A stretch of DNA of 64,000 nt, taken from assembly GCA_030141605.1 (NCBI GenBank), contig JAQGDQ010000076.1:647202-711201 (forward strand), in the 5' to 3' direction. Positions 5,340-55,803 of the stretch are shown here, one piece after another. Below the pieces are notes generated by a model. That model made no database searches and was not told where the DNA came from. It was given only the letters and a program-made list of their open reading frames with translations. This stretch comes from Tubiluchus corallicola (taxonomy: Eukaryota; Animalia; Priapulida). Within the stretch, counting starts at the first letter, position 1. Each line of letters starts with the position of its first letter. The translations under genes were made by a program, and so were the position numbers.

Positions 5340-5491
5340 ATGAGAGAGAGGTTGTGCAAAAGAAGACATTCACAAAATGGGTGACCTCGCATTTGTTGCG
5401 TGTCAACAGTCGAGTGGGAGACCTTTATGTGGACTTGAGGGATGGAAAGCTTCTAATCAAATTATTAGAGATACTTTCTGGAGAAAGACTT
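5340..5491 (+). CDS. SPTBN1: beta-spectrin exon, CH1
   Basis: tttag|AT GAG AGA GAG = (D)[27 protein letters not shown]|gtaagt. Confidence 0.95.
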
Positions 5492-26400: not shown

Positions 26401-29400
26401 GCCTGACGCATAACGTTGTAATATATTTAGTAACAAAATTGTTTTCATGCAACAATAAAACTATTACATTGTGCCACAATTTTAAGTTTAAATCAGTCAT
26501 CCATAGTACATACTATGGAATGTTGCATCTACACTTTGGTTTTGACTGGTCTTATGGGAGAATTAATCACAAGCATCTGAATTGTTCTGCTGTCTGTACA
26601 AGAATTGATTTTAGGTAGATGTGTTCTTTCGCAGCTTTGGCATTTACACTTCTTAATTCCTCTCTATTTCTAATTTTTCTTGTAAACAATTCACTGTTAA
26701 TACTAGTAGTAAATTGTGCTCAAAGAGTCTCGTGGACTGTACTATCTATCTTTTTTCCAGGTTTTAGAGACGGAAATGAATGCTAAACAAGCTCAGGTGA
26801 TTGAACTTGAATCTCAACGAGATCACCTGGCCAGGCTGGAACCAGAAAATGTCGAAAAGCTTGAGCTCATTGAGGCACAGAAAGTGCAAGTTGAAGAAAG
26901 GTGTGTCTTGCACTGCCATAATTTGATTTTTTGAACTATTGTAAACAACACTTCATGGAAAAATTTACTCTTCACAATATCTGCTTGCAATTTCTATATT
27001 TTTATTGTTTTATCATGTTACTTCTAGGAGTATTAGGGTTAATACATAACTTAAAGTCTGTGAACTAATGCTATTTGAATCTCCTGTATTTCAGGTTCCA
27101 GAAACTCAAAGCTCCGCTGGACGAACGAAGAACTCTACTGGAACGGAAACGGGAAGTGTTCCAATTCCTACGAGACATCGAAGACGAGTTGCAGTGGGTG
27201 GAGGAAAAAATTCCACTTGCCAAAAGTAAAAATTATGGGAACAGCTTGTACCAGTGTCAGGCGCTGAAACGCAAACATCAGGTGATTATGGTCTGCACTT
27301 TGCATTTGCATTAATTCTTGTTGCAAAAGTTAGTGTTTAGTTTATATACACCTCCTGAGTGTAAATGTTTGAACCATAAAAGAAAGCGTAGAATATCACA
27401 ATCTGGTGGAGATCCGATCTAGTGAATACCCGCTACTTTATTACTAGCAGTTATCCAAACTTTAATTCCTGTTTTCACTATTTTACTACTAACATTTATC
27501 TAAACTTTAATTCCTAATCTTTCGCATTCTTTAATTCCATGTTGACAGAATCTGCGCAATGAGGTAACAAACCACGAGCCCAGAGTCGTTAGCATTTGTG
27601 ACACAGGTCGTCAGCTAATAGCAAGCGGACATGAGCGGGCGGAAGAATTTGCAGAAAAATTGGAGGTATGTGTCACATTTTTGATATTGGTGATATACTA
27701 CTTCGAAATTGAGGAAGATAGAGAAAGTTATGTGAAAAATTTTAGTGTCTTGTAATTATGTCAACTGATAATAGCACGGTAAATAGTAAGTAACTCATAC
27801 GAGACAGACAGCCCAAGTATAGACCGGTACAGAGATATGTTGGTGTCCCAGTTCAGTAAAATAACAAGGGATAAATAGGTGGAAGCAGTGCTGGTGGGTC
27901 ATGTGCTGAATCATAACAATGGGTCAAGAGACAAAGACAGATTCACAATTTCGGATTTGATGATTACTATGAAAAATGAAATCATAGCATGCATGGAGAC
28001 AAGACTGAATGTTATACTAGATTTGCAATCAGATAATGCCGACATTGGATAAGACCATCATGACTATTGATAAACAGCATGAGATTCTGGATGAGCAACA
28101 GCATTTTCTGAATCGAGTGGATTTGAAAAAAATAAAAATCTCATCCTGCAAGGAAGTAAGTGAGGGTGAGCCATTAGCAGGATATACAACTGACAATAAT
28201 AAAATGAAATTTATTCTTCTGGCATGTGGTTATGATGGCTGCTCTGAGGATGGTAGCATCGCTGGAAAATTTTAACTAAGGGCAGAAGACTAAAACACAA
28301 CATTTCTGCTAAAGAGATTTTCTCGAAGAAGGATGTATAATTGTATATCCATTGGTTACAAAGGAACACGTGAGATTATATAGAGTCCGTACAATATTAC
28401 ACCCAAAAAATAAACCCGAGAAGTACGACGGAAAGTGAAAAGAAAAGACAGAAAAGTGTACATCTGAGCAATGATGAATTTAAACCCCTTTTTTCCGTTA
28501 CAATTTCACTGCAATATTATTGTGTAGTGCCAATGTAAAATGATGTGTATAGAATGGGTCCTTATTGTTATTGTTATTTGCTTAGTTTTGATGTGTTTAT
28601 ATGTTTGACTCAAGTGGTGTATTACTTGTATGTGTACAATGTTGAACTAATGAAAATAAACAACTGACACGACTATGTAAGCATTCATTTCTTGTGTGAT
28701 TATTTTTCCCTTGTGTCTTTGCACATTATTCTTTAATCAAAACATTGCAAACTTAGAACTACTATTTTTGCATAGTAAACAGCACAAAAGAGAATTTCTA
28801 TCCTTTAATTTCTTTAAAATGGGGATTTTTTGTTAATTGTTCCAATTTTTGCCATTAGGAATTATTTCAATGTTTAATTTTGGCAGTTCACGGTACAAGT
28901 TAAATATGCCTCAGTGAAATAAAGCAGTTGTATGACAGTATGGTCTATTGAGTAAAACAGTTCAAAATATCGAATAGCTGAAAATTAATGTCATTTGGTG
29001 TAAAATCTAGTTATCAACACTGTAATTGCTGAGGTCTGACATATACAAATACCAATATAATCATTGTAACAGTTTTCACAAATTTTGCTTAGATGTTGGA
29101 AAACCGTTGGCACGATCTCCGTGATGCTCTCGACGAAAGAGAATTTGCTTTGAACGAAAATGAGCATGCACAACGGGTGAGTAAGAACACACCACTAGTG
29201 TGACTTGCATTTGTTCATTTTGTGTGTCTATCTTTACTAGACTTACTCAGAAAATTGTCAACCAGCACTTTAAAGCAGGAAATTGTGAAAAAATGGTACC
29301 ACTGAAATCTCTTAAATTTTCATTGATAATCTTCCAAGGATGGGCGGAACTGACAAATGTCCATCTTCGTAAATGCTAGGTAAAATTATGGTGAAACAAA

Positions 29401-34346: not shown

Positions 34347-34406
<60 letters not shown>

Positions 34407-37400: not shown

Positions 37401-40400
37401 AGGAATTTGCTTGCTTTTTGTTTTAACCTTCCCGCTCTCTGTTTTACTTTCTTCTTTTTCTTATTTTTGCTCGTCCTATTCTGGGTTTCCTCGTTTTGTC
37501 TTTTTACTTCTCAACCTGCTCTTTCAAAACTTTCAAAAATCACGTGCTATACATGCTTCTGAGATGGATATGTTTAATTAGGATAGAGGTGATGATTATA
37601 TTTAATCATGGAAAATTTTATGGTAAGAGATTCCTTTTAAAGTTCTTTTTTCAAAAAAATAGTACGGAAGAATTTGGGTTAAAAACCAGCGCAAACCAAA
37701 CGAAATTTGAATTGGTTCGGGCGCACTTAAAACATTTCAGTTTGGCATAGAGGAAAAATCAGTTGATTCCGAGGTTGCATTAAGGTCGTCTGTTATAATT
37801 AGAAGACTTGTCCCTGAAGCGTGGCAAAAGCGACTGTATTGGAACATTATTTAACAAGTGAATTATGTTTAAGTAACAAAGTTCTTGGAATTTACTGACG
37901 TCTACAGCTGCCTGTAAAATACTGGTATTTCGATAATTTAGAATTTACCAAATTAAGTACTGCCATCATTGACTTAAGTCCAAAGACTGTCTGAATCGTA
38001 CTAGTTAACTTCGGGGGTGAATGTGCGTGGTCTGTTTAATTAATTAGTGGAATATAATTAGAACTATGTTGCAACTACGCTATCCTTATCTGTTTTTTCC
38101 TTGCGTTAGTCTACTTAAATATTTTTCGACGTTTAGTTTGGAATCCAAGCTATATATACCTAGGTACTGGTTTCAGCCAGAAGCCAGACCACATAATCTT
38201 GTACTCGCTTTCCTTGAACTTGTAATACTAGAAGACAAGTTGTAACTTAAGCTTGCGGTCATTTTTGCTCGGCATTCCTGAAGTGAATGTGGCCCAGGTT
38301 TCAGCTCTAATAACATCAGCACGTCTTAAAAAGATTTTCTTTGCTGTGTCTTGGTGACATCTTAGCACCTCGATGCCCCTGTGAAGTTGTATTAGAGTTC
38401 TCAAGTACTGCTTTAGCTATAAAAACGAACTGGCAATGATGCATTTTAAGACTATTTCTTTCAAATATCTACGATTACAATCATAATTTTTGATATCGTC
38501 CTTTAATCTTGTTCAGTTTTTCAACAGAATATTTATTAAAATAACTTCTGATTTGTATAAAAAAGAAGCCAAGCTGCAGTCCGCGGCATAAGCCATACAC
38601 AGTAGCTGCGTATGGATTTCGCTATCAGTGTAGATCACACTGTAAAGTTCAGTTTATGGCAAATCTGTTTGTTTTTGCACCCAGTTTCTGAGCTATATGT
38701 CGACACTGTTGCGATGAGGTGTCGAAGTGATGTTTGTTTTTCTTGACCCGGTTACTGGTTTTGTCTACTCCATTGGTCCATTATCCTAGATTATTTTTGT
38801 TTGTTCAAGGAGCAAATTTTTAGAAGAGAATTAAAGTTGGGGTTTATCAGGGCAGTTGTAGTTTTTCTGGCGAGCTTTCGATATTTGTGGAATTATGACT
38901 GACCAATGAAGATATATATCACTTAATCTGTGGCCATCTTCCCTTCATAGTTTTGCATTATTTTACTATTTATTTCAAGAACTGTAAACCGTTTCTTAAT
39001 CTGTGCTTCTTAGTTCTTGGTTTAATTTGATTAGAGAAATAGCATCACACTGTATTTGTTGGTGTAAAACCGTGTTTGTAACTTGCATCATATTTAAGTG
39101 TTCAGGTCTATGTGAGTCAAATAAATTGTATTTCTCCAAAGTCAACGTTAAAATTAAATGCTCAAAAATTCACAACTCAGTTAAAGCACCCAATTTGCAA
39201 CCTATTTGGAATGACCAATTTTTGAGGTTTTGTCGCATTGCGTGCAGGTGACATTGATGTAACAAATGACATTAATATGTAATGGACAAGAGATAACGAT
39301 TAATTGTGAACTATGTTAGGTTTCTTTGGTTCTTTTTTCTGGTCTTTATTATCAACTCTGACCTCAAGCAGGTTTTATTTAGACCTACTCATGTGTCACG
39401 TGAAATAGTCACACCGCTACCCAACTCATGACTTCACGTATTGCTGCTCTGGGGTCGAGCTGATGTAATCCGCATAATTTCAAACAAGATTAAAAGGACT
39501 TTCGGTTCTTAGAATTCCTTTTTTGTATTCCCGAAAAATAAGGCTCTTGCTTCCCGTCCGACCAATAAACCTTCTTAATCCGACTTCTCGACTTCTCTGG
39601 AAAATTGCATGGCGATAATTTATACCACATGAATCCAGACAACAAGATGTGAGGAAGGGGTTAAACTGGGAACGCGTGTGAAGCCAAGCACTGTATGTGG
39701 TACTCTAATACAAATGTTTTAGTGTATTTTTCATATGCTCGAAAGTTGCGCAAGCAGTTCGGTGTTTTCAACTTACTGGTTTATCTTACATAGTTAAGGA
39801 ACTTCTTATAGCTTTGGGCTGCAATAACTGGACCTCCAGTGACTTTAAGCCTTCCCGAACTTGGAAAAAGATCGTTTGCGTTCCAATTGTGCTTACTGGC
39901 TTTTTGAAATGCTAGACGTTTTCCTGTTATTATTTTACCTGTTTGACGGAGATGCTAATTGTGTTATGAATATTTGGTTGCACTTTCTGGTTAGCATTGA
40001 CCATCAGATGCGTAGAGGCTTTATTCGTCAACCGTTTAATAACTTTACCTTCGAGTTTAACATCCTGTGTGCCATAGTTTGTTAATTCTCAATACTCTTT
40101 CACTGAGTTGTTTTAACAAGACAGGAGGCATTAAACACGGGAGGCGTTTAGCAGTGTGTTTAACGATCTAAGAAAATGGCACAGAAGACAGTAGAACAAC
40201 AGAGCTTCCAGCAGAGGATGGCTGTCCAAGTGGGTGTTGTGGCACGTGGTGACGAGCAAAACTATAACACTCAAGAGTACCAGACTGGGGTCAAATTACT
40301 GGAGGTGTGCAAGTCTTCAAACGCCATGAAAATGGATAATCATGGTCCACCGAAAAAACCCAAAGACAAAACGAACAAATTAAACTGTCAGTCTAGTACT

Positions 40401-43400
40401 AGTAAGCAAAATTGTTACGTGGAGGGTAATGACCCATTTTCAGAAGTGTTTAGCGATGTGCAAGATAATGAAGTGAAATTTCACTCGTTGCCAAGAACTT
40501 CTTCTGGTTGGAAGTATAATCCGTTGTCTATGGAACACAATGCAGACATGTTTAATTCATTACCACGTGGCAGCTTTGAAACCCAACAACAACCAAAGTT
40601 CTACTCATTGCCCAGGCGACGCCGACGCCGGAAGAGATCAGCCATTTGTGTTATCAACTTGGCCCATGTACAAAGTCAAGAAGACCTTGGTTCTCAGAGC
40701 TCCATCAGTTCTACAGACACTCTTACCTCCGATTATGGCTTAGAGGGTAGACTTGGTAAGCCATACAGCAGTCCGCGGTTCAATGCAATTCAACGAAGCA
40801 TCAGTGCTCAGGATCTAACAGTACATTCCAGGGGCAGCGTGTTCAGGCGCAGTATCAGCACCGGCACCTCTATCGTGGACTTGTCAAAAACAAAGAAGTC
40901 AACCTCTAGGGATTCCCTCTCATCCATTAATGTTGATCTGGAGGTTAGATACATTGATGCTGCATACAAGGAAAACACGGCCGATGCTGGAACTGGAGAT
41001 GAGTTGAGCATACATGACAAAAAGATAAATATCTATTTTTTCTTCTTAATCACAATGTATCGAATGTTTTCTAAAATTGCAAGTGTCAGTGTGTAACATT
41101 ATTCAAAACTAATCATTATAAATATAGTATGTAACTCTTTCTTGGCAGGTAATTTTTACGTCAGCTACCTTGCACTAATTATTGGTTATAGACAACACAC
41201 AGATGTGCAAATGTTTATTAATACACGGCTGTACACTTCTAAAGTTGCAAAATGACTGCACATACATATATTTTGTAACCTAGCAATTATTAATTTTTCC
41301 TAAATTATGTTTTTGATATCATTGCCCCAGCAGTTTGGACTGATATCAAAACTATACCGCATTAATAGTGATGCTAAAATAATGCACACATATTGAAATT
41401 GTGCAGAATTCATTGCAAAAGCCATTAAGTATCATCACTACAACCATATCAGCCTATTTATTGGTTATCTAACATGATAAAAATAAAACTAACTTGCTCA
41501 CTTTTCATTTAACAAAACATCGTAATATTGAAATACATAATAAAGCTTCTCAAATCAAGATATGCTTTAAATCTGGGATAAAAATGCTTAATTCTAAATA
41601 CGTCATTGTTATCCTGGTAATTGCTGTTTTCAGGAAACTCCCAAAACACTATGGCACTGTTTATTTTAAAGACATTTATTTGCTAAAAGCAAAGTTTAAT
41701 TACTTAAATATTATCGTAGTTCACGTTTGGGTATGATGGAAGAGTAGCTTGTTTGCATAAAACAGATGTTGGAGCAGAAAAACGTGCTAGCGTACGCATA
41801 GAGTTATGTTTAGCCCGGGTGTAAGCTGTAATCTCACAGCTGTTGAAACATCGAGACCCTTAATGGTGGAGGACAATGATGCATAGGTTGTTGTGGAAAC
41901 TGAAGCATCGGCAACTTTTTCTGGCGGCATCTGAAACAGCCGCAGGGCGGTGACACCTAGTTCTGGATTTTGTCAAAAATTTTGTAGTCTCACTGCAATT
42001 TTGCACATGCTGCTGGAATATTGCCTGCTAAGTAGGCGTGGGTCAAATTTTATAATTTATTAATTTTGGTGCAGCACAAACAACATATAAAGTATAGCAA
42101 AAACACACAATGAAGTACAATGTATTCTAAAAATGTTGTACAAATAATTTACTTTCTGGCAAAGCCTGGAATATTATTACAATATATATATATATATATT
42201 TTAAATTATTAGATGAAAATATATGTATCTGCAGTAACGTATTCCAATATTTGTACAAGTTCATTGTGAAAAACAACTGATTAGTCTTGGTTTTGTAAAT
42301 TGAACTCAAATTGTTTAGAAACATTTCTGTAAAATCATATAAAAACTCAAGTGCTGCAGCACATTTATCAATTAACAAACTAATTAATAAACAAAAAGTT
42401 ATGCATAAAGGATGTAGCTGTAATGTGTGTGAAACCAAGCTAAAGTCACCTATGAGCACATTTCTGACATGGCTTTTTTGGGCCTTCCATAAAACTTTTA
42501 CAACAGTTAGACCCATTGTGAATAAATGTAATTTCTATGGCAACATGTACAAATTCTGATTAAAGGGAAATATAGTTTCCACAAATAAACTAAGCTTTTA
42601 GGATTCAGTTGTAAACTGTTATTGGTTTAGCGCCACCTGTAAAAGTTATCATCATAAGTTCTGTGTTTCTCGAAACAGGCAATGACCCTATTAATCCAAT
42701 AAATGCACGAAAGCAGTACTAAATTAGAAAGCCCGAAAATAAGTTTTTGTGTTTTCATTCGGACTTGAACCCAGGCCTTCTGCTTTCCGGGCAGCTGTAC
42801 TAACATCTACACCACAGAGGCACGGTGACTTTTCAGACTTAGAATAAGGTACTAGACGTCTATTAGTAACAATGACAGTGATTGTTAGTGATATAACTGT
42901 GGTAGATTTACACAGAAATAGAGTTTTTCATTTTTTGACCTTTTGTTATGTAAATTTAGCATTGCAGACTAATCTAAAATTTTTACGTCTGTTTTTCTAC
43001 ACAAACGACTTTTTGTTAAACGACTTTAACTAATCACACATCATAATCATCATTGATTTACTATATATGGTGACTATCGTGTGTGTGGTGTAGCTGCTGC
43101 ATTTCTCTGCATTTTTCTCTTTTCCCTTTCCCCCAAACAATATATATTTCTTTTATCCCACAAAATTATTTTATAGAAAATAATATTCATGTTAATTTTA
43201 AATATTAGTAGCTGACAATTAAAGAAAACACCACGCGATTAAAGAAATAAGTCAAGTGACTAAAGAAAAAGGGGTGCAAAATTAGAAACTTACTAATAGT
43301 TGCAATGTGTAACCATATATGCAACAGTTTGTGGTATCTATGAAATGCTGTCATGAGTACTAAATTATAAGTGATGGCCTGGAATTTTAGATTACATAAG

Positions 43401-44168
43401 TATGCAGATTTTTGAGAAGGCAAACTACAACATTAGCAATTTGATTATATGCAAAACATTGTATACATGAATATGTCATGTCATCGTCGTCTCCATCGGG
43501 ATTATCATATGGTCATTGTCAACATAATTATTGCTGTTGTAGTCATCATCAGTGTCTACTATTACTTATTTGTATGTGGCTGGTGTCTTTCACTGTCTTG
43601 AAGTTAGTTGCCCAAGCAATTGGGAATGACTTTGCAATTTATTTCAGTACTTTTTCGACACGAACGAAGCAGAGGCATGGATGTCGGAGCAGGAGCTGTA
43701 TATGATGACAGAGGAGAGAGGTAAGGATGAGACGAGCTGCAATGCACTGATCAAGAAACACCAGCAGCAGGATCAGGCTATAGAAGATTATGCAGACAAC
43801 ATCCGCGAGTTGGGTGAAACTGCTAGACAGATGATCGATGCCGGACATCCACTCAGGTTTGTGAGAACTCTGTGTCATGGGCACGTTAAAATTTTTATTT
43901 TATTTTAGGCTCATAAACTCATGCAATTACTTCTTTTTCAATTGCTAAGCATCATCATAGGCTGTTTTTTTAAAATGCATTTGTGCAGCTAGCTTTTCTG
44001 GTACTGATACTCAATCCATTTTTGTGGATAATGAATGGATTGGCATATTGAACTATGGAGTCTCTATGATGATATTTGTTCAGTTGGTCAATTTGAACAC
44101 TGAGTCACATACCTTGTTTCTTACCCAAGGACTAACAGAAAATTGATTTTTCAGATATTAATTTAGAT

Positions 44169-44225
<57 letters not shown>

Positions 44226-47200
44226 GAGGCAGAAGCAAGGGGCAAGAAGGCGTAAAATTCTTCTAGAGTTTACTGACTGTTAATTATTAATTACTAATCT
44301 GACATTAGAATGAACAAAAGTTTTGAAATTGCACCAAAACTGCCTAATCAGAGATCATCGTAACTGACTTAGTTTCTATGTAGGCTACAACATAGAAGCA
44401 AGGCTAATGTTGTTACTTAATGGCGTGTGTAATGTGGCATGTGGCTTAGCAGATTGAAATTTTTTGGAGAAACTCTGGCATTATTCTCTAAAATTTTTAT
44501 GCTGTTTGTATTATTGTGAAAACCTGTATTATTCTGTATCCATCATAATCTTTTCCTGTTTTAATGACTCTCATGTTACAAGCAACTTTTCTAGATCACT
44601 TGTAGAAAAGAGTTATTCTGGTGCAATATTTCATTATTGCAGGGCGATTCATTAACATTCTCAGAAAAAAATTCGTTTAACTTTATCCCATCAAAGAAAG
44701 TGAGACTCGAGGATGCAAAAAACATGCACAATTGTGTGGCTTCACCCACAAAACAAATAATCAAAACATTAAAAGGGTAAGGCATCAGAATTATTTTTGC
44801 CCCCTTGTGCCACAAGCACTTGCTACACCACTGGATGATGATGTCAGCAACAGAAATAACAACAATGATGACTTAACATGTATTATTACCATTTTAGCCT
44901 CTCAAAATGAGTGCATAACAGGCTGTGCTGTGCACTAGTTTTGATAATATATTTTTCAGTGACCAAATAGCAGTAAAGCAGTCTCAAGTGGACAAGTTGT
45001 ATGCAGGCTTGAAGGACCTGTCGCAGGAACGGAGAGGCAAGTTGGATGAGACCCTGAAACTCTACATGTTAAACAGAGAGGTGGATGATTTACTGCAGTG
45101 GATCGCAGAGCGTGAGGTCATCGCCGGGTCACACGAGCTGGGACAGGACTTTGAACATGTCTGCGTACGTAAAATTTTACTATTTGTTATTGTTCTATTG
45201 TGTTTCCTCTCATGTCAAAAACTACTTCAAAATAATATAATTGCGACACTAACTATTTCTTGTTATAGTTTAGCTGAAAAGTTATTATAGTTTCTAAATT
45301 CAAAACTCTTTCATCGTAATTTTTTTAAATCTTTACATCATTGAATATCTTCACCCAAAATGTCACTTTTCAAATTATGAATATGCGTGTATAAATTAGC
45401 AGCTCTCCTGTTATACATATTACACATATATGTGCAATTGGCAGCTGCACTGGTATTTATCTCTGGTAGTAGAAAAGCTACATTTAAGCGCGTTAAGACA
45501 CTCAGATTTTAAGCCTTGTTCTTGGATCAGTTCTTGGACACAACTGTCCTACTGCAGCATTGAAAGCAACGTTTATGTTTTTGTTCTTCTGTGAATATTT
45601 TTATAAAATTTTTGTGGTGAAAATGTTTACGCAAACATTTGTAATTAAATTATGAAGCTGGTATTATAGCTTCAAGAGACACGAAATTGAATCAATGGGT
45701 GGAAAAGGTTTTTTGCACAGAATGCCAAAAAGCCATTGAAGACACATTATTTGCTAGTGCTATTTTGTGGTGTTTTTCAACTATGGAGCTCACCTAAAAT
45801 ATAAAGCTAACGAAACATTTTGTGACCAGATGTTACAAGAGCGCTTCCGAGAGTTTGCTCGTGATACGGAATCAGTCGGCACAGAGCGAGTGTCTGCAGG
45901 TAACGACATTGCAGATGCACTCATCAATGTCGGTCACTCAGATGCGGCACTGATTGCTCAGTGGAAGGATCAGCTGAATGAGGCTTGGACAGACCTTTTG
46001 GAACTTATCGACACTCGGACTCAAATGTTAGCTGCCAGCTACGAGTTACACAAATACTATCATGACTGCAAAGATGTGTTAAGTATGATACAGGTAAGTA
46101 CGAATTTTTTTAAACATTTTATTTCTATTAATGTGTATATTAAGAATGCTGATAATTTTCGGTTTCGCTAATGACTCTTTTTATTGCTTGCATTTTGATA
46201 TTGTTTGATTAGATTCACTGCTTGTTCATAGCTTTTCATATTCTGATGTCTTAAGTGATTTACCTTGATGAATATGAATCAAGCTTAATTAATTCAATCT
46301 GACTTGCTAATGATATTGAGATTTGACAAATTTTAGAATTATTTTCACAGGAGAAACAAAATTCCATGTCAGACGAACTTGGTCGTGATTCTGGCAGCGT
46401 TTCTGCTCTCATACGCAAACACTCCAACTTTGAATGTGATCTGGGCACATTGGAGAGCCATGTGCAGGGCATCACAGCCAAGTCTGTCACACTACAGACA
46501 GCATACGCTGGCGACAAAGCCAGAGAGATCCAAAACCGAGAAGCAGAAGTCATAAATGCTTGGAAAAATCTCAAGACCAGCTTAGACGCTCGGCGAGAAA
46601 AGCTGATAGAAACAGGTACATTAATTCTGAATGTATTTGAGTTGTTTTTTTCCCTTTTTTAAGTAATTAAGTGGTTGGATGCTTGCCAGCAATAGAAGAG
46701 CTAGTCATGATTGAGCAAACCCACTTTTCTAACTTTCTGAATCCGAGAAAGGACTTGAAAAAAATTACTACTGAGCCAACATTTGAACCAGGCACTTTAA
46801 ATGACAAATTCAGCATCGTAGACTAACTAGAAGTCGTCTCGGTCATCTGTAATCAAAACAGATTTTTACGTACATCTAACAGTTAAGAAGCTCGGCGTTA
46901 ACAAGTCATATGCTTTTAGCAGTTCTCAGTTTCTGTTCCAAAGTAGTCTAATGATTGTACATACCACTTTGTGTGGTGAATTCAGGGGGATAACTGAGTA
47001 CTTGTATATGTGATTTGTAATCACCCGTCACTCATTTGTTTCATTGATTAGGATTTATACGCATCCCAATTTGGCTGGGACAAATCTTTTATTTTATTGT
47101 TTCATTTTAGGGGATTGTCCGTGAAAGAGAAAAAGATTCTAATCCTGCCACAACAACTTTGCCTTTCAATACTGGCTCCTACCTGCAGAACTCTAAAATA

Positions 47201-50200
47201 AGTGTACATTTGTGACACATTTTAATTCACAAATGTTCTTGCAGTTTTGGAAGGAAAATGAAGTTTTGTCAGTCATTTGATTGGTAGCAATTAGCTGTTC
47301 CTGTACAATCAAAATTGTGGTTTGAGCTGAAAAAGTACTTTGCACCAGCAGTAAAAAGTTTTGCCAAGTTTTAAATGGCTTCTTTGAATCTTGTTTCTAT
47401 AGCTACCCAGTGTTTATCCCAAGTAAAAAAGTATGTTTATCTGATTTTATCTCCATGACATACAGGAATAATTTTCTGCGGCTGTACTTATAAATGTTTA
47501 TTACTTCATTCAGGTGATCTGTATCGGTTCTTTAATCTCGTTCGTGATCTCATGTTATGGATGGATGACATGATGACTCATATGAATTCACAGGAAAAGC
47601 CTAGAGATGTCGCAGGTGTAGAAGTGCTAATGAACGACCATCAGACTTTGAAAAACGAGATTGATTCTCGCGAGCAGAACTTTGAAGTTTGCGTAGCACT
47701 GGGACAAAATCTACTTAGTCGACGACACTATGCTTCAGAGGAAGTAAGGAAAACATTTTATTTAAATCACTGCACAAAATTAAAGGAAAAATTGTAATTT
47801 TAAATGTATCTGTGTGCTTTTCTAGTTAAAATTGCAAGTTCGCTTATGCATTTCGTGGATGAAATTGTTTCTGTAGTTTCTCGCTTCTGCAGTTAATTCC
47901 TTTATGAATTCTCTTTTTTTCAAGATATAGATACTATGTGATTTATAAAAGACTGTAACATTTGGCGAAAATTGTAATATTAAACGTATTTGAAGGCTTG
48001 TTGTAATTTCCAGTTAAGACTATAAAACCTTTATTTAGCAATTTCTGTGATGAAATAGTGTCTGTAGTTTCTTATGTAAATTGCTGCATGTAATGATAGA
48101 CACATCTTCATGCAGTTTAAAACTGTTGTACTAAAGTTTTGGTTTTTGTAATCGTTTAAGCATCATTTCTTTATTAGCAGCTGGTTATTGTTATATTATA
48201 TGTAGTTATTGATTTTTTTGTTTGCTATTTAATTTTGCACATTTTGCTTGCAGATAAAAAGTAAATTGTTAACATTGACCAATCAGAGAACTAAAATGAT
48301 GGAACAATGGGAACACAGATGGGAGCATCTGCAACTGGGTAAAGTATTAAAGCTTACATTATACTTGTACTGTTTAATCTTTTTCATTACAATATTCATG
48401 CACGCAGCAGTTACAATTGATTTGTTGTTTGGTATGTACTAACACAGGTTTGATGCCAGGCTTGTCTAAACACAGAAATATTGTTTGCAAAAATACTTAA
48501 CAAGCAGCGTGAGCTTGACAGCATACCCAGAACCAAGTAACCAATCTTAGTTCCAATTAATAGTTTATTTTTTATTTTTCTAGTATTGGAAGTGTATCAA
48601 TTTGCTCACGATGCCTCCATTGCTGAAGCTTGGTTGTTTTCCATGGAGTCTTACTTAATGCAGGAAGAATTAGGAGTAAGCTGCAGTTGCATTTTTTATA
48701 TGTTTAGACCATATAAAGGTAACCTGTTAGTGCGGTTATTCACGTTTCATTATGAATTGTTTTAATAAGCTAAGTCATTTGCTGAATAAATGTTTGCTTT
48801 TGTCAACAGAGGACGCTTGACGAGGTCGAATCATTAATCAAAAAACACGAAGATTTTGAAAAGTCAGCTTTAGCTCAGGAAGACAGATTCACTGCACTGA
48901 AGCGACTAACTACGGTAAGCATTCAGTAACTCTCACAGTTTTTAACTTGCATTGTGATATGAAAATACATATAAAAAACTTAGACTTTCTTTATGCAATA
49001 GACTGACGTAAAGTTTTCTGTAATTTTTTAAGGTTCTTTCACAGATGATTTGTTGTGTTATACAGCTCTGTTTTTTTCTGACGTAGATTTTTGCTAATTA
49101 GTATTCAAAAAACAATCCACAATGTACGTACAGGGGATTTCATACTGTTTTCCATTTACGGCAGCATTACAGAGTTCTTGCATAGTTTTTTGCATACTGG
49201 TGCAGCCATTTGTATTCATTTTTATTCTATATACATATACATATCAATAGGTTGTCATTAGTTTTTACATAGAAAGTAAACAATGTAATTTCCCAACTAG
49301 GTGGAACTACAGGATCAGCGTAAAAGGCTTCATGCTGCTGTGTTGCTACGGCAACAAAAACAACAGCAAGAAAATGGGGTAAAATGCTATTGCACGGCAC
49401 CTGACTTAAACTAACAATGTGTTCCTTGAAGTACATTAATTCATTAAATTATTAATGTTAGACAAGTAGTCTCATTTTGTGGTTTACCTTGTTTGTGCAT
49501 CAGAATGATGTGCTTGTGTGGATTGAAAAAAATTGATGAGTTCAGTTTGCTATCAAGTGATTAGACTTGTAATGTGTTTAGGGTATCCACCTTGTAAGGC
49601 ACTATTGCCGATACTAACTTGAAATGTTTAATGCATCTAGATTACTAACTTTGCATTGTTAGGATTTTGCTTTCTTGGACCAATGGCTTAAACATCTAAC
49701 ACAAGTGCTCAGAACCTACATTACCCCTTTTAAGAGCAATCAGCTGTTGCATATTGAAGTAAAAAATATTTTGGTTTCACTTTAATCCAAGCATCATTTT
49801 CAAACATAAGAAATTACTGGTTTGCAATCAGTAAACATAAAACAATTGGTGATACTAACTTATTTTTGAATGTTTATAAATATTAATTTATGTAAAGAAC
49901 GAATCATATTGATTCTCTGATGGCTTATTATTTAGTAATATGCTTTGCTTATGCTAAATGTAAACAATAAAATTATACATTACTATTTTAGTGCATTATG
50001 ATTTTCCTAAGCTATAAGTCTCATGGTTTTCCCACAACTGATAACTTATGAACAATTGTACCGTATTCATGTATTTTGAAGTTATTGGGTTATCTGTTTT
50101 TAGTGCTTTCAAGTAAACAATCACAGTTTATTTGTAGTCAAGATTATCAATTTATGATGGAATGAGCCCATCAGATTTTTCAGTTCTTCAGCTTTTCTAA

Positions 50201-53200
50201 TCAAATTAGACTATATAAATGGAAATGAGAGATAATCAGAATTTGGCCTGGATTTGAGTCAGAGACTTTGGAATATAAATTCAGATTCAGTGTCATGATC
50301 ATCAGATGAATATAGAGATATAGCCTTAGCCTTTTGTCTCTAGCAGTAATTCAGTACAAATAGTTCAATCTGGATGAGCTCGTTGTTACATTTGAATCAG
50401 AGCGCGCTTTGATTGCAATAGTCTAGTTGTCATAGGCTTGCAATTTAAAGATCAGTAGTTCAAATCCATTCTGAGTCTTAACTTTTTTGCACTTCTTTCC
50501 TTTCAAACTAATTCATTTAAATTTAATGTTTTGTAGTAGTTTGTTTTATAGATAATAAAATTAGTGCGGATGTGACTTTATTGATATTGTTCCTATTTAG
50601 TAATCTCTTTTCATCTTGTTTATGGTTGTTTGTTGTTAATGTTAAAACATTGTTTAATTCGTTACAGTTTGAATTGAAAGAATTAAGACGTAGACAAGAA
50701 GAGGAGGAAGAAAAAAGGCGGGCTGAAGAGAAAGCCATGCAGGAGGAAGCTGAAAAGATACGAAAAGAACAGTAAGACATAAGACTAGCTTTAATTTTTT
50801 GTTGAAAGTAGTGCTGATAAAGTTAAAGTTTTATGTATTTATGATAATGAGATGACTGCATCAACTATATCTCCTCAGTATTGGAACCTTATAAAACCTC
50901 TTGCATTTATCTGATTTCTATAAATCCTTACAATGTATAAGCACTGTACTTGTACAACAGTATTTTTTGCAAACAGTTTCTTTCCTCTGACAGAAATATG
51001 ACATTTGGAAGTTATATATGTAATATGAACAGTGGGATTATTGATCTGTATCTGCCAAACGTGGAGTCCGACACGCTTCACATCGGCAGAAATAGATTTT
51101 TTTGTTATGTTGTTTGCAATAAAATAAGCTGGGAAGAAAAATTACCTGTGAAATTTTTTTCTGTTAAAATGAGAATGTTCAACACAGTATTTGACTTAAA
51201 ACTCAAGTAACATATGTGGAACAGTATATTAACAATTTTTTAAGACTAGAAAGTATAGTGTTTGAACAGATTTTGATTCGGTAATTGTTTATTAAGTGCT
51301 GTAGGTAATAATCGGCCATCTAAAACCAGTCACACCTTTGCCGATAACTTTGAATTTTAGATCACTTTGACTGAATATTCGTGGACAGAAGGTCAGTACC
51401 TTTCCATAAGAGTGGTGTAAGCCCTTCTTTCAAGTAATATAGTCTACAACCCAAGTAAGGTTGCTTATCAGGATTGTATTGATTTCTTGCCTAAAGATAG
51501 ATTATCATATAGGTCATGTTTTTTATGCTTGGTCCAAACTAGCAAGGTAGACTCATGCTTAGCTATTTAAACTAGGTGTCAGCATACATAATTTCTAGTC
51601 TATACGGTAAATTATGAATGAAGTCTTGCAAACAAATCAACAAAACTATGATAAACGTGTTTAAGCTGTCGAAATCATCATCCGAACACTAAGACACTAT
51701 TTGTATAGCTTAGCGTATAGACACTAACACATACGCTAAGCTGCTAGTGCTTTGTTATACTGCAACATGCCATAGGATACAAGATTAATCCTACTTTGTT
51801 GCACCATTTAGAGGAAAATAGCAAAATCAACATTCAAATAAGATTTTTTCTGGTAGCTAGGTTGCTGATAACCCTATGATAATAGTTAGGTGTCTAACTA
51901 AATGCATTAAATTTGTATATCTTTTAGAGATGAAGCCGATGCTGCTAAAAAGGCAACTGCAAGAGCAGAAAGAGCTGGCTCCGGCGATGCTCAGGTTTCG
52001 TCAGAGTCTAGTCCTCCATCCGGTAAGCAATTCTAAACTTTTCTATTTAGATACAATTTTTGGAAAATGAATTTCGCCTTCTGAACATCATTACTATTAT
52101 TACATGCTCATCATTTGCCTTGTTATTTAGTTTGCATCTTAATGCCAAACATTATTTTCTGCATTGTTTTCTCTATTTTGTGCTGTAGTGGCATGTCACT
52201 ATTTTACAGTTATTTCAGTGCACTTCAGAATTTTATTGATTTTTTCTTTTTGTTTTCTGATATTTATCTCTGTGATTTAAATGTTTTTCGCATGGAAAGT
52301 TTTCGGATATTTTTAATCACTTAGGTCAACTAAATTTGCTTAGCTGTGCTTGAAATTAAGTTTGTGTAAGTTGAAACACTTTTTTGGAAAGTAACACTGA
52401 CTATCTACTGTCATAGCAGTGTTTAGTTTTTGTCGGACGGTCTATTTACTAAGAGCGGTGGCACATATTAAGCTATAGTAGAGTGCTGCTAATCAAAGTT
52501 CCTTTTCATTGATCAGCACTTCTTGCACTACAAATGTGATCTAATCATCGTAATGATATGATTTAGATGCTGTTGTTGATTTTTAAAATTTCTACTTTCA
52601 GTTTTCTACTACTGAAAACCAGGAAAACTCCAGTTCAGTTATTACCATTTTTTGTTTTTCCCATTAAGTAAACTTTTTATTTACACACACATATTTCAGC
52701 TCACACTGGCACTGTGTTAGTTTGCATGAGCACTTCACACGCATGTGTTTTTGATTTCTTTCTTTAGCAAAACCTAAAGCTAAGGTTGCGACTAGTAAAG
52801 CATCGCCTGCACAACAGAAAAAGTTGAAAGTACAGGGTGAGTTTTTCAAATGGGTATCGAATCATTTATTTTAACTTTTTATTGCACATTTGTTAACTAT
52901 TGTTACACCAGTAGCTGCATGTTTGTAGTTACTGAAAAAAATCCACTTATTATTGTTTGCTGTAAGAAAATGTAAGGTAAACGTGGTTCAGTGTCTGTTT
53001 GTACATTTACAATATGTGCAAGTGCAGGTAGTACAAAATTTTTTATTTATCGAACAAATCAAAATTAAATCACCTACAGTTTATTGTTGCTGTTGCTTCG
53101 TCATGACATGAGTCATGCGGCACTTTTGAATTCTCGTTGCTAGGAAACTTATTGTATGCTCTTTTGCTTTCTCAAATAAACATTCTTAGGACTACCTGGC

Positions 53201-55803
53201 CGGTGATCCTAAGAAAGAACAATGCAGAGTCTATAGGAAGAAAATGAATGAATTCTTAGCAAAAAGTGATCATTGAATTCCATTATATAAACACTATGCC
53301 CAATAGTGATTTGATTGTCAAACCAACCAGAATTTTTAAGCAGCCGCTACTCATGAGACAGCCCGAGTGTTTCGTGCTCATATTCTTTTGGAATTGAAGC
53401 GCTCAGGTCTTGTATAAACACTATACGCAATACTAATTTAATTGTCAGACCAATTAGAATTGAGAAGCAGCTGTTGTTTGTGGGTCAACCTGATTGTTTC
53501 ATGCTCATGCTCTATTGGACCTGAAGCTCTTAGATCCATAGAGATTTCTAAAGACTTATTTGTAATTTTAGGTGAGGCTGGTGATACGCAGATGGAAAAC
53601 ATCCTACTCCGAAAGCAGGACCTTATTCCTGGTGGCAAGAGGTCATCAAATAGGTAAAAATAAAAATAGGCTTTGATCTACGACTTACGGCCATTTTTTT
53701 TATGACTATGTGTTATCATGTTTGAGCATTGTAAATCCCTCAAAAAAAGACTGTTCAAATGCGGCGCTAGAATCTTATCATATGCTTATGCTGTTGTGTC
53801 CTTCCATGAGTCTTTTGCAATTGAAATATCCAGTGCACAGCAAATGCAGAAGAACTGCTGATCTTGCAGCTAGCTGACTGTCTCGTGTTGCAACCTCCCA
53901 GGCATACCAGAAGTACAGTACCTTTATATTTCCAGTAGCATCTGTTTTTAGAATTAAAACACACTTATTTTAAGAAAGGTCAGAAATTTGTCTTTAAAGC
54001 GAGAATTTCATCAATAAATAACTTAACTTCGCTTGTTTAGCTTAATTTTTAGGCCAAAAATGTGTGTCTCATTCGTCAACTTTAATTTTTTTCAGATCAT
54101 GGGATAAACTTTACACCATGCTCAGAGGAGCTAATCTCATTTTCTATAAGGATCAGAAGCATGCCAAACAAGTAAAATAGTTATTTTTCACGTCCAAATG
54201 GTTCATGTTGGAAAATCAGCTGTTATAAATGGGAGAAACATCACTATGTTATAATGTTATAAGAAATAATAAACAGAGAGAGACAATAATGGAGAAAAAT
54301 GGATCAAACCCAGAACCATCTAGAATGGTTTTTTTGCATCACATTTCTGTTCATTTGTTGAAGTAAATTTTGATTTACTTCTTTAATAAATCTGATCGGT
54401 TAAATTTGTCAGCGTTTATCAGTTCTTCGTGATTACAGTTCAGTTACAGCATCTTGGTGTACTTAAATCTACTCACAGTTATTTTTAAATAAATGTCATA
54501 CCATTTGATGGTAATTGTTCACGACGTTCTTTGAAAAAACAACGTTAAGTACCATCCTGTGAAATACCAGTAGCCTATTATGTACATTAGTTTCATTTCT
54601 TCTACAGTTAACAATTTTCTTCCAGGAAGGTGCTACGTTCCGCAACGAAACACCGCTAGACTTGCGAAGCTGCACTGCTGAAGTTCCAAGCGATTATACA
54701 AAGAAAAAACACGTTTTCCGCCTGAAGTTAGTATATTTTTGTGAACTAAAATCATGTGCTTTATTTTATTTGTTAAACACAATTGTGTATATACTAAAAT
54801 AAATGAGTTTTATTTTATTAATTCGGAGCTTACAAAACACAAAACAGTCCAACAAAACTATTGTTTTCTGAGCAGTATGGCCAGGGTGATGTTACTGTGC
54901 AAAAGTAGCGTCATCTTGCTTGATTTCACCGATTTTGTTTCTTCCGAAAAATAAATGCAAATTAGGGGTGCTCAAGGTTGGGACGCGATTAACAGTGTGG
55001 GATTAGGATTCGGGTCAGGTCCGAAAATTCTGGATCAGGGATCCTGGTTGCCAACCCTTAACACATAATTATCAATAAATTGAGATAAAAAAATTACAAG
55101 AACACAAGTTCAGTCGGGCTTTAATTATAAAGACCTTGTATCCTGGACAAAAAAAGTGTAGTCTAGACTGTGAGTAGATTCCACCCACACACCGACTGGC
55201 AGTGTACCAGCTATAAATACGTTAATTGCCATTTTGTCAATGGTAAAACAGTTGTTTACTGTAAAGTGTTAGCATTTTATTTATTTATTCTGCACTGATG
55301 TTATCAACATGGTTAGCAAACTTGGTGTTATACAAAATACATTTGCGGTGAAGACATATAAGACATGGCAACAAGTGTATTCTCTTACCTTTCCTTGATG
55401 TCTGCATAATCAAAACTTGCACAGTTTCACTATGCTAAGTAAATATAAAAGTGAACATGGTTCAGCATCCAATTGCATATTTACAATGTGTGCAAGTTCA
55501 ATTCTTTTTTATTTATCAAACAACACAAAATTACATTTACAGTTTGTCCTGCAGTTGATTTGCATAACTTGTTTTAGAATTCCCATTGTTCTTGTGCTAC
55601 CTTTCAGACTCGAAGATGGCAGCGTATACTTATTCCAAGCTAAGGATGACGGTGAGATGGAGTACTGGATACGAGCAATTCAGGCTGTAAGAGACACACC
55701 CATCACTCCGCCCTCCCCCTCCAGAGCGCAAACGCTTCCCGTTGCCATCGCCGAGAAGAAGGAAGAACCGAAAAAGCGCAGTTTCTTCACACTGAAGAAA
55801 TAA
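5340..55803 (+). CDS. SPTBN1: Beta-spectrin (conventional, non-erythroid type), 43 coding exons in window, 5' end incomplete
   Basis: Exons joined at GT-AG sites give one continuous frame: CH1 ([21 protein letters not shown]), CH2 ([34 protein letters not shown]), 17 spectrin repeats, PH domain, C-terminal [17 protein letters not shown]. Symbol is the nearest vertebrate name, not a one-to-one orthology claim. Confidence 0.97.
5978..6151 (+). CDS. SPTBN1: beta-spectrin exon, CH1
   Basis: cag|[26 protein letters not shown]|gttagc. Confidence 0.95.
6552..6724 (+). CDS. SPTBN1: beta-spectrin exon, CH2
   Basis: tag|[38 protein letters not shown](R)|gtgagt. Confidence 0.95.
7380..7495 (+). CDS. 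SPTBN1: beta-spectrin exon, CH2
   Basis: cag|[28 protein letters not shown]|gtaac. Confidence 0.95.
9037..9149 (+). CDS. SPTBN1: beta-spectrin exon, end of CH2
   Basis: cag|(D)[31 protein letters not shown]|gtaaag. Confidence 0.95.
9689..9876 (+). CDS. SPTBN1: beta-spectrin exon, repeat 1
   Basis: tag|[32 protein letters not shown](K)|gtaagt. Confidence 0.95.
10697..10973 (+). CDS. SPTBN1: beta-spectrin exon, repeats 1-2
   Basis: tag|[34 protein letters not shown]|gtgagc. Confidence 0.95.
11320..11483 (+). CDS. SPTBN1: beta-spectrin exon, repeat 2
   Basis: cag|[38 protein letters not shown](R)|gtaatc. Confidence 0.95.
12314..12452 (+). CDS. SPTBN1: beta-spectrin exon, repeats 2-3
   Basis: tag|[26 protein letters not shown]|gtatgt. 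Confidence 0.95.
12884..13165. repeat. ~65-bp imperfect inverted repeat (MITE/foldback)
   Basis: aaattttgttgtaaacgatgatgtttcgaaaacccccaagttttcatcttc pairs with gaagatgaaaactagtgagttttcgaaatatcattgtttattacaaaatt. Confidence 0.75.
13846..14011 (+). CDS. SPTBN1: beta-spectrin exon, repeat 3
   Basis: tag|[27 protein letters not shown]|gtatgc. Confidence 0.93.
14200..14444 (+). CDS. SPTBN1: beta-spectrin exon, repeats 3-4
   Basis: tag|(G)[34 protein letters not shown]|gtttgt. Confidence 0.95.
14895..15095 (+). CDS. SPTBN1: beta-spectrin exon, repeat 4
   Basis: cag|[26 protein letters not shown]|gtaata. Confidence 0.95.
16135..16251 (+). CDS. SPTBN1: beta-spectrin exon, repeat 5
   Basis: cag|[39 protein letters not shown]|gtacaa. 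Confidence 0.93.
16601..16843 (+). CDS. SPTBN1: beta-spectrin exon, repeats 5-6
   Basis: cag|[17 protein letters not shown]|gtagag. Confidence 0.93.
17258..17466 (+). CDS. SPTBN1: beta-spectrin exon, repeat 6
   Basis: cag|[32 protein letters not shown](K)|gtatgt. Confidence 0.93.
17837..17933 (+). CDS. SPTBN1: beta-spectrin exon, repeats 6-7
   Basis: cag|[32 protein letters not shown]|gtaagc. Confidence 0.9.
18062..18190 (+). CDS. SPTBN1: beta-spectrin exon, repeat 7
   Basis: cag|[43 protein letters not shown]|gtgaca. Confidence 0.93.
18811..19919. mobile_element. Non-autonomous TTAA-flanked DNA transposon (piggyBac-like)
   Basis: Ends ttaactccttcacgacg and revcomp ttaacaacttcccgatg; internal inverted copies of ctttNNNgaagaagattttgc near 19092 and 19733; no transposase ORF. 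Confidence 0.55.
20282..20398 (+). CDS. SPTBN1: beta-spectrin exon, repeat 7
   Basis: cag|[27 protein letters not shown]|gtagga. Confidence 0.92.
20638..20772 (+). CDS. SPTBN1: beta-spectrin exon, repeats 7-8
   Basis: tag|[36 protein letters not shown]|gtttgt. Confidence 0.93.
22567..22707 (+). CDS. SPTBN1: beta-spectrin exon, repeat 8
   Basis: cag|[30 protein letters not shown]|gtaatt. Confidence 0.93.
23066..23233 (+). CDS. SPTBN1: beta-spectrin exon, repeats 8-9
   Basis: tag|[31 protein letters not shown]|gtgagt. Confidence 0.93.
23735..23907 (+). CDS. SPTBN1: beta-spectrin exon, repeat 9
   Basis: tag|[31 protein letters not shown](R)|gtatgt. Confidence 0.93.
24916..25153 (+). CDS. SPTBN1: beta-spectrin exon, repeats 9-10
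   Basis: cag|[42 protein letters not shown]|gtacat. Confidence 0.95.
25844..26104 (+). CDS. SPTBN1: beta-spectrin exon, repeats 10-11
   Basis: cag|[34 protein letters not shown]|gtgagt. Confidence 0.93.
26761..26900 (+). CDS. SPTBN1: beta-spectrin exon, repeat 11
   Basis: cag|[24 protein letters not shown](R)|gtgtgt. Confidence 0.92.
27095..27281 (+). CDS. SPTBN1: beta-spectrin exon, repeats 11-12
   Basis: cag|[33 protein letters not shown]|gtgatt. Confidence 0.95.
27549..27665 (+). CDS. SPTBN1: beta-spectrin exon, repeat 12
   Basis: cag|[39 protein letters not shown]|gtatgt. Confidence 0.93.
29093..29176 (+). CDS. SPTBN1: beta-spectrin exon, end of repeat 12
   Basis: tag|[28 protein letters not shown]|gtgagt; followed by a 14.5 kb phase-0 intron. 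Confidence 0.92.
34351..34402. repeat. (TC)n microsatellite within a pyrimidine-rich tract
   Basis: Direct reading. Confidence 0.97.
40176..40943 (+). CDS. Putative alternative first coding exon of a short beta-spectrin isoform (256 aa, Ser-rich, probably disordered)
   Basis: Longest ORF in the window (306 aa unspliced). ATG in AAAATGG context with in-frame TAA at 40161-40163 upstream. Phase-0 donor GAG|GTTAGA matches the phase-0 acceptor at 43648. Confidence 0.65.
42754..42821 (-). mobile_element. tRNA-derived SINE-like head / tRNA pseudogene
   Basis: Revcomp GCCTCTGTGGTGTAGATGTTAGTACAGCTGCCCGGAAAGCAGAAGGCCTGGGTTCAAGTCCGAATGAA has A-box and B-box (GGTTCAAGTCC) but no acceptor-stem pairing. 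Confidence 0.6.
43648..43856 (+). CDS. SPTBN1: beta-spectrin exon, repeat 13
   Basis: cag|[33 protein letters not shown](S)|gtttgt. Confidence 0.95.
44169..44225. repeat. (GAT)n microsatellite
   Basis: Direct reading. Confidence 0.97.
44960..45164 (+). CDS. SPTBN1: beta-spectrin exon, repeats 13-14
   Basis: cag|[29 protein letters not shown]|gtacgt. Confidence 0.95.
45830..46093 (+). CDS. SPTBN1: beta-spectrin exon, repeats 14-15 (ankyrin-binding region)
   Basis: cag|[43 protein letters not shown]|gtaagt. Confidence 0.95.
46351..46615 (+). CDS. SPTBN1: beta-spectrin exon, repeat 15
   Basis: cag|[34 protein letters not shown]|gtacat. Confidence 0.95.
47514..47743 (+). CDS. SPTBN1: beta-spectrin exon, repeat 16
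   Basis: cag|(G)[32 protein letters not shown]|gtaagg. Confidence 0.95.
48254..48338 (+). CDS. SPTBN1: beta-spectrin exon, repeat 16
   Basis: cag|[28 protein letters not shown]|gtaaag. Confidence 0.93.
48584..48675 (+). CDS. SPTBN1: beta-spectrin exon, partial repeat 17 (tetramerisation site)
   Basis: tag|(V)[30 protein letters not shown]|gtaagc. Confidence 0.93.
48810..48914 (+). CDS. SPTBN1: beta-spectrin exon, partial repeat 17
   Basis: cag|[35 protein letters not shown]|gtaagc. Confidence 0.95.
50668..50771 (+). CDS. SPTBN1: beta-spectrin exon, charged helix after repeat 17
   Basis: cag|[34 protein letters not shown](Q)|gtaaga. Confidence 0.92.
51928..52022 (+). CDS. SPTBN1: beta-spectrin exon, linker
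   Basis: tttag|[33 protein letters not shown]|gtaagc; phases 2->1 fit the neighbouring exons. Confidence 0.85.
52768..52836 (+). CDS. SPTBN1: beta-spectrin 69-nt symmetric linker exon (possible cassette)
   Basis: tttctttag|(A)[23 protein letters not shown]|gtgagt; phase 1-1. Confidence 0.75.
53572..53653 (+). CDS. SPTBN1: beta-spectrin exon, start of PH domain
   Basis: tag|(G)[26 protein letters not shown](R)|gtaaaa. Confidence 0.88.
54096..54171 (+). CDS. SPTBN1: beta-spectrin exon, PH domain
   Basis: cag|[25 protein letters not shown]|gtaaaa. Confidence 0.92.
54626..54726 (+). CDS. SPTBN1: beta-spectrin exon, PH domain
   Basis: cag|[33 protein letters not shown](K)|gttagt. Confidence 0.93.
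55608..55803 (+). CDS. SPTBN1: beta-spectrin terminal coding exon (end of PH domain and tail)
   Basis: cag|[44 protein letters not shown]. Confidence 0.95.

Follow-up and report, generated by a model that had tools for sequence, protein, structure and literature searches.

A possible short beta-spectrin in a priapulid, with a conserved coding head inside a large intron and a candidate AT splice donor

The closest described counterpart of the gene form considered here is mouse betaIV-Sigma6, which arises from an alternative first exon within its gene, has neither the actin-binding domain nor the early repeats, and keeps repeat 15, the ankyrin-binding repeat of betaIV (PMC2199236, PMC2063985), together with repeat 17 and the PH domain (PMC2199236, PMC6546920, PMC2063985). 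Sigma6 has been called unique to betaIV (PMC2199236), and its place in the membrane skeleton, given that it has no actin-binding domain, is described as an open question (PMC2199236, PMC6546920). A second relevant system is the U2-type AT-AC intron, a documented class in which, according to one study, a +1 G-to-A change was rescued by C at the intron's last position and which accounted for 24 of 610,067 introns over five species (PMC1557818); in a reporter assay of GC, TT and AT sites, AT was the weakest (PMC6280755). Here we describe a locus in a 64,000-nt stretch of DNA from the priapulid Tubiluchus corallicola (the window) at which both systems may meet: a conserved coding sequence in the sense orientation within the largest intron of a beta-spectrin gene, with a U1-like AT site at the end of its conserved part.

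The host gene and the open reading frame in its largest intron

The host gene was rebuilt as 43 exons encoding 2282 aa with no internal stop and with GT at every donor (the model begins at 5340, an earlier first coding exon lying outside it). It is a conventional beta-spectrin with CH domains, 17 spectrin repeats and a C-terminal PH domain in one frame (repeats were numbered by counting backwards from the C-terminal end); its exons are collinear with beta-spectrins by tblastn and its nearest homologue carries Spectrin and PH domains. Among 122 proteins compared, the closest spectrin was from Priapulus caudatus (81% over 415 residues) and the next reached 71%; a 19-row tree gave no supported clade for the host spectrin, and its lineage is therefore taken from nearest identity. 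Between repeats 12 and 13 lies an intron of 14,471 nt, the next largest being about 2 kb, and within it an ORF at 40164-41096 (+ strand, sense relative to the host) that is the longest among 29 stop-to-stop ORFs of at least 100 aa in the window (310 aa against 188 for the next). From the ATG at 40176, which has a strong start context (A at -3, G at +4) and an in-frame TAA upstream at 40161-63, it runs for 306 codons to the TAA at 41094-96. Its length is above chance expectation, the maximum over 200 first-order resamples of the intron sequence being 209 aa. The sequence-only reading that drew attention to this locus had described the longest ORF of the window, sense-oriented in an intron of about 14.5 kb and preceded by an in-frame stop, and had placed a phase-0 exon at 43648; all of this holds, and the upstream exon end at 29176 is likewise phase 0. 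Its count of 725 aa downstream of the intron becomes 728 aa in the rebuilt model (702 without the exon at 49301-49378). The features needed below are as follows.

5340..29176, + strand: 28 upstream exons of the exon model, encoding the CH domains and repeats 1-12 (1554 aa modelled), which would be absent from the short form
40117..40175, + strand: likely 5' leader of an internal first exon (change point at 40117, putative start site)
40176..41024, + strand: coding head of 283 codons, predicted disordered; residues ~141-283 conserved, residues 1-140 unmatched in two relatives
40428..40727, + strand: 299-nt unspliced contig of sequencing run X2, differing by 23 substitutions and lacking 1 nt at 40648
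40476..40646, + strand: three F-x-SLPR motifs (residues 102, 126 and 142) and an Arg/Lys run
40941..40949, + strand: GT donor proposed earlier (GAG/GTTAGA), inside the conserved coding block
40944..41024, + strand: best-conserved block, residues 257-283 (18/27 identical to the protein P0121; the match to P0098 reaches 41006)
41022..41032, + strand: candidate non-canonical 5' splice site AAG/ATAAATAT, phase 0, then a T-rich tract (U1 match, change point)
41025..41096, + strand: remainder of the ORF up to its TAA, AT-rich at 25% GC; translated intron in the preferred reading, C-terminus if the ORF is a nested gene
43620..43650, + strand: shared acceptor region, with TGAC at 43627, the ordinary AG at 43646-47 and AC at 43649-50 (candidate AT-AC partner in the same frame)
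43648..55806, + strand: 15 exons of the exon model for repeats 13-17, linker and PH domain (728 aa), five of whose joints are also in X2

A phmmer search of 1.84e9 representative proteins gave two matches, P0121 and P0122. P0121 is a protein of 166 aa (E 4.5e-16) in which 73 of 152 residues (48%) are identical to the ORF; P0122 (E 1.7e-8) was rejected as a homologue, being a tandem repeat of low complexity. Among the 120 spectrins listed of 503 found, one, Priapulus caudatus XP_014662872.1 (P0098), starts with the same head, matching 40596-41006 at 47% (E 2e-26), and then runs on into spectrin repeats and PH, so that in a second genome the head precedes the same exons. P0121 and P0098 were compared with the window as protein sequences, and at that level the ORF is conserved in relatives. 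The blocks common to the head and the relatives are K-[YF]-[HY]-SLPR with the basic run, CVI[DN]L, YGL[QE]G, SA[SQ]DL, STGTSI[VI]D and residues 257-283; both relatives start with M-[AS]-E-Y-V-D-L, the window head having about 140 more N-terminal residues than either. Other searches added no relative. A profile search restricted to proteins of 330-2000 aa, which the tool itself flags as weak, had P0098 as its sole match, a search with the head alone against 449-2000-aa proteins gave none among 1158 candidates and was insensitive, since P0098 sits in that set, an exact look-up of ORF starts gave 0 of 6, and metagenome scans matched 0 of 320 stretches in one case and 1 of 229 in another, the single match (L001) being rejected as bacterial, matched across the wrong frame and with no spectrin. 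A transposon ORF was also rejected: there was no Pfam match (E up to 1), the ORF is single-copy in the window with no flanking repeats, and the depth of sequencing run X1 is low there against 130-158 at true repeats. The ORF is established as genuine, conserved coding sequence, neither a transposon nor a chance frame.

On the start side, composition changes from intron-like to exon-like at 40117 and no AG site scoring above 3 bits lies between 39813 and 40615, which together with the common Met motif favours an internal first exon over a cassette or last exon; the ORF is thus likely, as judged from sequence, to be a first exon. The head it encodes has short motifs: SLPR with the basic run, Arg-Arg-Ser sites and two VIDL-like motifs (one of them VINLA in the window), the relatives having a single SLPR motif plus the basic run against three SLPR motifs in the window. 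The head has no Pfam family (E up to 1), no usable match in the PDB (best E 0.65) or the Atlas (0.78), and Rfam had 0 matches over 29000-45000. AlphaFold with a three-sequence alignment gave a pLDDT of 42 and no fold, which suggests a disordered head, the alignment being very shallow. VIDLT is the core of the PIAS SUMO-binding motif (PMC3901395), and the basic run with two VIDLT-like motifs offers a weaker lead towards a possible nuclear role.

Two sequencing runs bear on the locus. X1 behaves as DNA near the window sequence, with no indel listed in the ORF and, at 40648, a depth of 8.6 with no deletion. One X2 contig is spliced at six GT-AG joints; these include the ordinary join from 29176 to 43648, which places the AG at 43646-47 in use. 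Of 6 X2 records placed over 19.9 kb, those listed comprise this mRNA, one record in the head and others at a repeat at ~44280-44790, and at 80% likeness there was no other X2 match in 39700-43720. X2 carries 66 differences in 1259 nt of spectrin exons, which hold about 259 synonymous sites, and all 7 changes listed there are silent; set against this, the 23 differences in 299 nt of the head lie well below neutral divergence. Of these 23, 19 are listed; read in the ORF frame they give 8 silent changes and 10 altered codons, compared with 4/15 and 1/17 (silent/changed) in the other sense frames; the synonymous excess is non-significant (8/19 against 4.7 expected, P = 0.063 allowing for change type). 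The deletion at 40648 would end the frame near 40741, and X2 also changes M119 to V; the three X2 changes past the deletion, read in the original frame, are two silent and one conservative. The deletion may be the error of a single amplified fragment or a real allele, and the unspliced contig could be DNA or pre-mRNA. No head-to-43648 joint occurs in the X1 and X2 contigs, which weighs neither for nor against a join (contigs drop rare forms, and X2 has no cover of 40728-41030), and no RNA record is listed over 40050-41000.

The 3' end of the conserved exon

The sequence-only reading had ended the head after codon 256 with a phase-0 donor, GAG/GTTAGA, joined to 43648, and had pointed to similar donors at 6151 (gttagc) and 54726 (gttagt). 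These sites are all present, the first at 40943. A product with a 256-aa head spliced from there (984 aa in the rebuilt model), whether as main or minor product, has in its favour that the GT is canonical, in phase and scores 7.0 bits, as good a score being found at 14 of 939 intron GT sites, and that the homologous codon of P0098 (137) is Val, so that GT stands there too. It does not stand out, however: 16 of 40 real donors have an equal or lower score, and three further GT sites in the ORF outscore it, two of them phase 0. The 27 codons that follow it are the most conserved of all: identity to P0121 is 53/113 for residues 136-256 and 18/27 for residues 257-283. The P0121 codon homologous to this GT is Ile and so cannot begin with GT, and the P0098 model reads through; moreover P0121 has no Val after residue 95 and hence no phase-0 GT donor in or beyond its conserved part. 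Composition also stays exon-like for 81 nt further, GC being 45% in 40176-40943, 43% in 40944-41024 and 25% in 41025-41096, and the T share at +9 to +30 of 40943 is 23% against a mean of 41% for real donors. A change-point model trained on the exons and introns of this gene put the exon end at 41025 (interval 40998-41033), with 40943 worse by 13.8 bits; on 21 training-set donors the model was at most 14 nt off in 12 and too far downstream by 77 nt or more in 2. Misses of that last size are about the distance from 40943 to 41025. From conservation and composition together the donor at 40943 is probably wrong, and with it the 256-aa head; as the end of the exon it is quite improbable.

No good GT or GC was found at the exon boundary near 41025. 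What does lie there, at 41024 and in phase 0, is AAG/ATAAATAT, which agrees with the U1 sequence at 8 of 11 places; 2 of 1212 intron AT sites do as well, and so do 19 of 42 real donors. Scored with the matrix of this gene and its +1 letter treated as G, the site reaches 9.9 bits, the third-highest value among the 168 xT sites of the ORF other than GT. It carries A, not G, at +5. The triplet AAG stands before 10 of 42 real donors, and 6 of 42 have a downstream T share equal to or above the 55% seen here. The similarity of P0121 stops at K-K-I-N-M, residues that, as deduced from the protein, fix A+1, T+2, A+4, A+5, A+7 and T+8 as in the window (6 of 8 intron letters). The stop after the conserved block is kept in neither species, the tails being 23 residues in the window and 10 in P0121; both are rich in AT codons (14/23 and 9/10) and their lengths are within the range of 0-50 found for read-through at real donors. 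Two sites that outscore 41024, a TT at 41003 (10.8 bits) and an AT at 40998 (10.6), were rejected, as they precede conserved codons and are absent in P0121. A U12 intron at 41028 was rejected for two mismatches and incompatibility with the P0121 residues. RTATCYT does not occur in 41024-41036, and the 90 nt next to the acceptor hold no branch site of U12 type. Editing of the +1 A into a GT donor was rejected as well: there is no local structure (z -0.06), and A-to-I editing disfavours a 5' G.

At the acceptor the sequence reads CAG, TAC, giving an in-frame AC 3 nt past the AG, an arrangement seen in 1 of 38 exons checked; more in-frame ACs follow at 43659 and 43665. A Tyr is expected at this position and 6 of the 13 Tyr codons in these exons are TAC, so that the AC is weak as support. 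The candidate intron has these sequence traits of the U2-type AT-AC class: a U2-consensus 5' site except for A at +1, and an in-frame AC behind a candidate branch point (TGAC at 43627) and pyrimidine tract.

The proposed short spectrin and competing explanations

We consider it rather probable that a short isoform is made through some junction. In the preferred reading an internal first exon (about 40117-41024, 283 codons) would be spliced by a U2-type AT-AC (or AT-AG) intron to give a spectrin of 1010 aa; this falls slightly short of even, as does, taken by itself, the use of the AT donor. Transcription would start from an internal promoter near 40117 and translation at 40176, U1 would pair with AAG/ATAAATAT, and the major spliceosome would join 41024 to the AC ending at 43650 or, less likely, to the AG ending at 43647, the full-length mRNA using the GT at 29176 with that AG. 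The modelled product (about 116 kDa) consists of the head, repeats 13-17 and PH, so that by exon content the actin-binding domain would be gone while repeats 15 and 17 and PH remain. Of the sequence-only reading, a short isoform retaining repeats 13-17 and PH still stands as the likeliest product, and the 256-aa head finds no support; the Priapulus model places the head before the same exons. In conventional beta-spectrins the partial repeat 17 binds alpha-spectrin head to head and repeats 1-2 nucleate the lateral dimer. From this anatomy the product would keep its ankyrin site (repeat 15, with 14), the partial repeat 17 and PH; without CH domains and repeats 1-2 it would neither cross-link actin nor zip up with alpha-spectrin as a lateral dimer, and it could cap alpha-spectrin ends while holding ankyrin-bound membrane proteins. 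Its most probable function would be to cap the lattice or to act as an adaptor for ankyrin, in line with the cap or adaptor suggested by the sequence-only reading. Most speculatively, motifs of the head might anchor the protein to a partner that is not F-actin, with phosphorylation as the control.

The main competitor is a nested single-exon gene on the same strand, or a short transcript from an internal promoter, encoding a disordered protein in its own right, 306 aa long here and 166 aa in the species of P0121, with an unconstrained tail. It requires no rare splice site, and it has a start, a stop and AATAAA at 41482 and 41539, although AATAAA occurs 11 times in the intron, the background rate. 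P0121 is indeed recorded as an ORF of 166 aa and both tails are hydrophobic for about five residues past K-K-I-N; a strong GT donor at 41148, 52 nt beyond the stop, could let such a transcript run on to the spectrin exons while the two frames stay separate. Against a nested gene, the position of the stop differs between the species, GC drops from 43% to 25% within the frame, a U1-like site of the grade of 2 in 1212 AT sites coincides exactly with that drop and is in frame with the exon that follows, and the head has no family, fold or Atlas match. The very low prior of U2-type AT-AC introns is what holds the AT reading short of even and keeps the nested gene in contention, unlikely as we judge it to be.

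Other joins would use the GT at 41084 (phase 0, 1031 aa), a phase-2 GT leading to exon 44960, or the ORF as a last exon after repeat 12. There are eight GT sites in 40944-41096, of which two are phase 0 and four phase 2, and P0098 does connect its head to a 44960-type exon; yet all eight score 3.4 bits or less with at most 6 of 11 U1 matches, P0121 ends ahead of any phase-0 GT, and no acceptor was found for use as a last exon. The P0098 model, moreover, has no repeat-13 exon and makes its connection through residues that read like the translated acceptor tract of an intron, so it is probably a forced gene model and does not show the 41024 junction. Taken together these joins are highly improbable. 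The X2 frameshift and M119V, which also count against the preferred reading, could instead point, with the 140 N-terminal residues unmatched in relatives, to a once-functional exon now decaying in this lineage; but the frame is intact in the window, X1 shows no deletion at 40648 and no indel listed in the ORF, and the X2 changes past the deletion fit a recent allele or a library error. To decay we give very little credence.

The preferred reading carries a wider proposal, namely that priapulids have an internal promoter and a conserved short beta-spectrin made through a U2-type AT-AC intron whose tandem AG/AC acceptor is shared with a GT-AG intron, an independent counterpart of betaIV-Sigma6 hidden from gene finders by its splice site. 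In this full form it is possible, with doubt the stronger. If true, the short-form design arose outside vertebrates too and the conserved head points to a replacement of the actin link, while the choice between an AT first exon and a GT one, with AG and AC 3 nt apart, would be unusual splicing missed by standard annotation. If the nested gene is true instead, it would be a lineage-restricted one.

Comparison with known systems

Searches of the open-licence literature turned up neither a short beta-spectrin from an invertebrate nor a paper on priapulid spectrin, nor any AT-AC intron in a spectrin gene; the head is already within a public automatic model, XP_014662872.1, and no description of it was found in that literature. 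This model ('spectrin beta chain-like', 832 aa) has the same head, strand and downstream spectrin exons as the window, with 81% identity over 415 spectrin residues. It differs in that it was predicted automatically, its head is 157 aa long, the repeat-13 exon is missing and its junction looks forced. Human betaIV-Sigma5, reportedly described by Tse and colleagues in 2001, is said to be a truncated beta-spectrin at PML nuclear bodies; the priapulid form would likewise be truncated, with a basic run and VIDLT-like motifs in its head, a resemblance confined to five-residue motifs.

At the splice sites the nearest relatives of the candidate intron are the U2-type AT-AC (AT-AC II) introns of SCN4A, SCN5A and TAF2, which share with it a U2-consensus 5' site with A at +1, a 3' AC and no U12 consensus (PMC1557818). 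Unlike these, the proposed intron would be an alternative first intron and would share its acceptor region with a GT-AG intron, AG and AC lying 3 nt apart. As to the protein, translation of betaIV-Sigma6 begins at the internal Met 1321, inside repeat 10, and its first exons are non-coding (PMC2199236, PMC6546920, PMC2063985), whereas the priapulid form would add 283 coding residues, start at repeat 13 and belong to the single conventional beta-spectrin of an invertebrate. It would, by analogy, work like betaIV-Sigma6 without being a member of that group.

Splice-like sites of the 14,471-nt intron

A strong GT donor (CAG|GTAATT, 9.3 bits) lies at 41148, 52 nt 3' of the stop codon of the 306-codon ORF, and has a pyrimidine run ahead of it. 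At 43395, 250 nt 5' of the shared acceptor of the repeat 13 exon (43648), there is an AT site, TAC|ATAAGTAT, with 8/11 U1 matches; apart from the candidate AT donor of the ORF at 41024 this is the only AT site of the intron to reach that level, and its likeness to a U1 target is probably due to chance.

Repeats and a tRNA-like stretch

The repeats are as follows (X1, the sequencing run that behaves as DNA).
34340-34471: CT microsatellite, inside 34200-35240
within 34200-35240: T-rich repeat, high X1 depth
44254-44870: high-copy repeat, high X1 depth, in the intron that follows exon 43648

Those of 34200-35240 give rise to two spurious long ORFs. The repeat at 44254-44870 shows many loose ends and joints in X1, and pieces of it are also present in X2, the run with the spliced spectrin contig. 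A tRNA-like stretch on the minus strand (42739-42830) resembles a tRNA-derived SINE on visual inspection, and X1 has a loose end related to it; an Rfam search over 29000-45000 gave no matches.

Ends of the gene and the exon near the tetramer site

59777-60127, minus strand: hydrophobic frame of 116 aa, downstream of spectrin
49301-49378: 26-codon exon, end of repeat 17

The N-terminal coding exon(s) of full-length spectrin were not located in the window before 5340. The hydrophobic frame may be one exon of a gene for a membrane protein; it had no match in Pfam. The 26-codon exon can be omitted without loss of reading frame and its start closely resembles that of the next exon (50668); it is a possible cassette adjoining the tetramer site, where alpha-spectrin binds. 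It has the same position and length as residues 586-611 of the Priapulus caudatus 'spectrin beta chain-like' gene model (XP_014662872.1, 832 aa).
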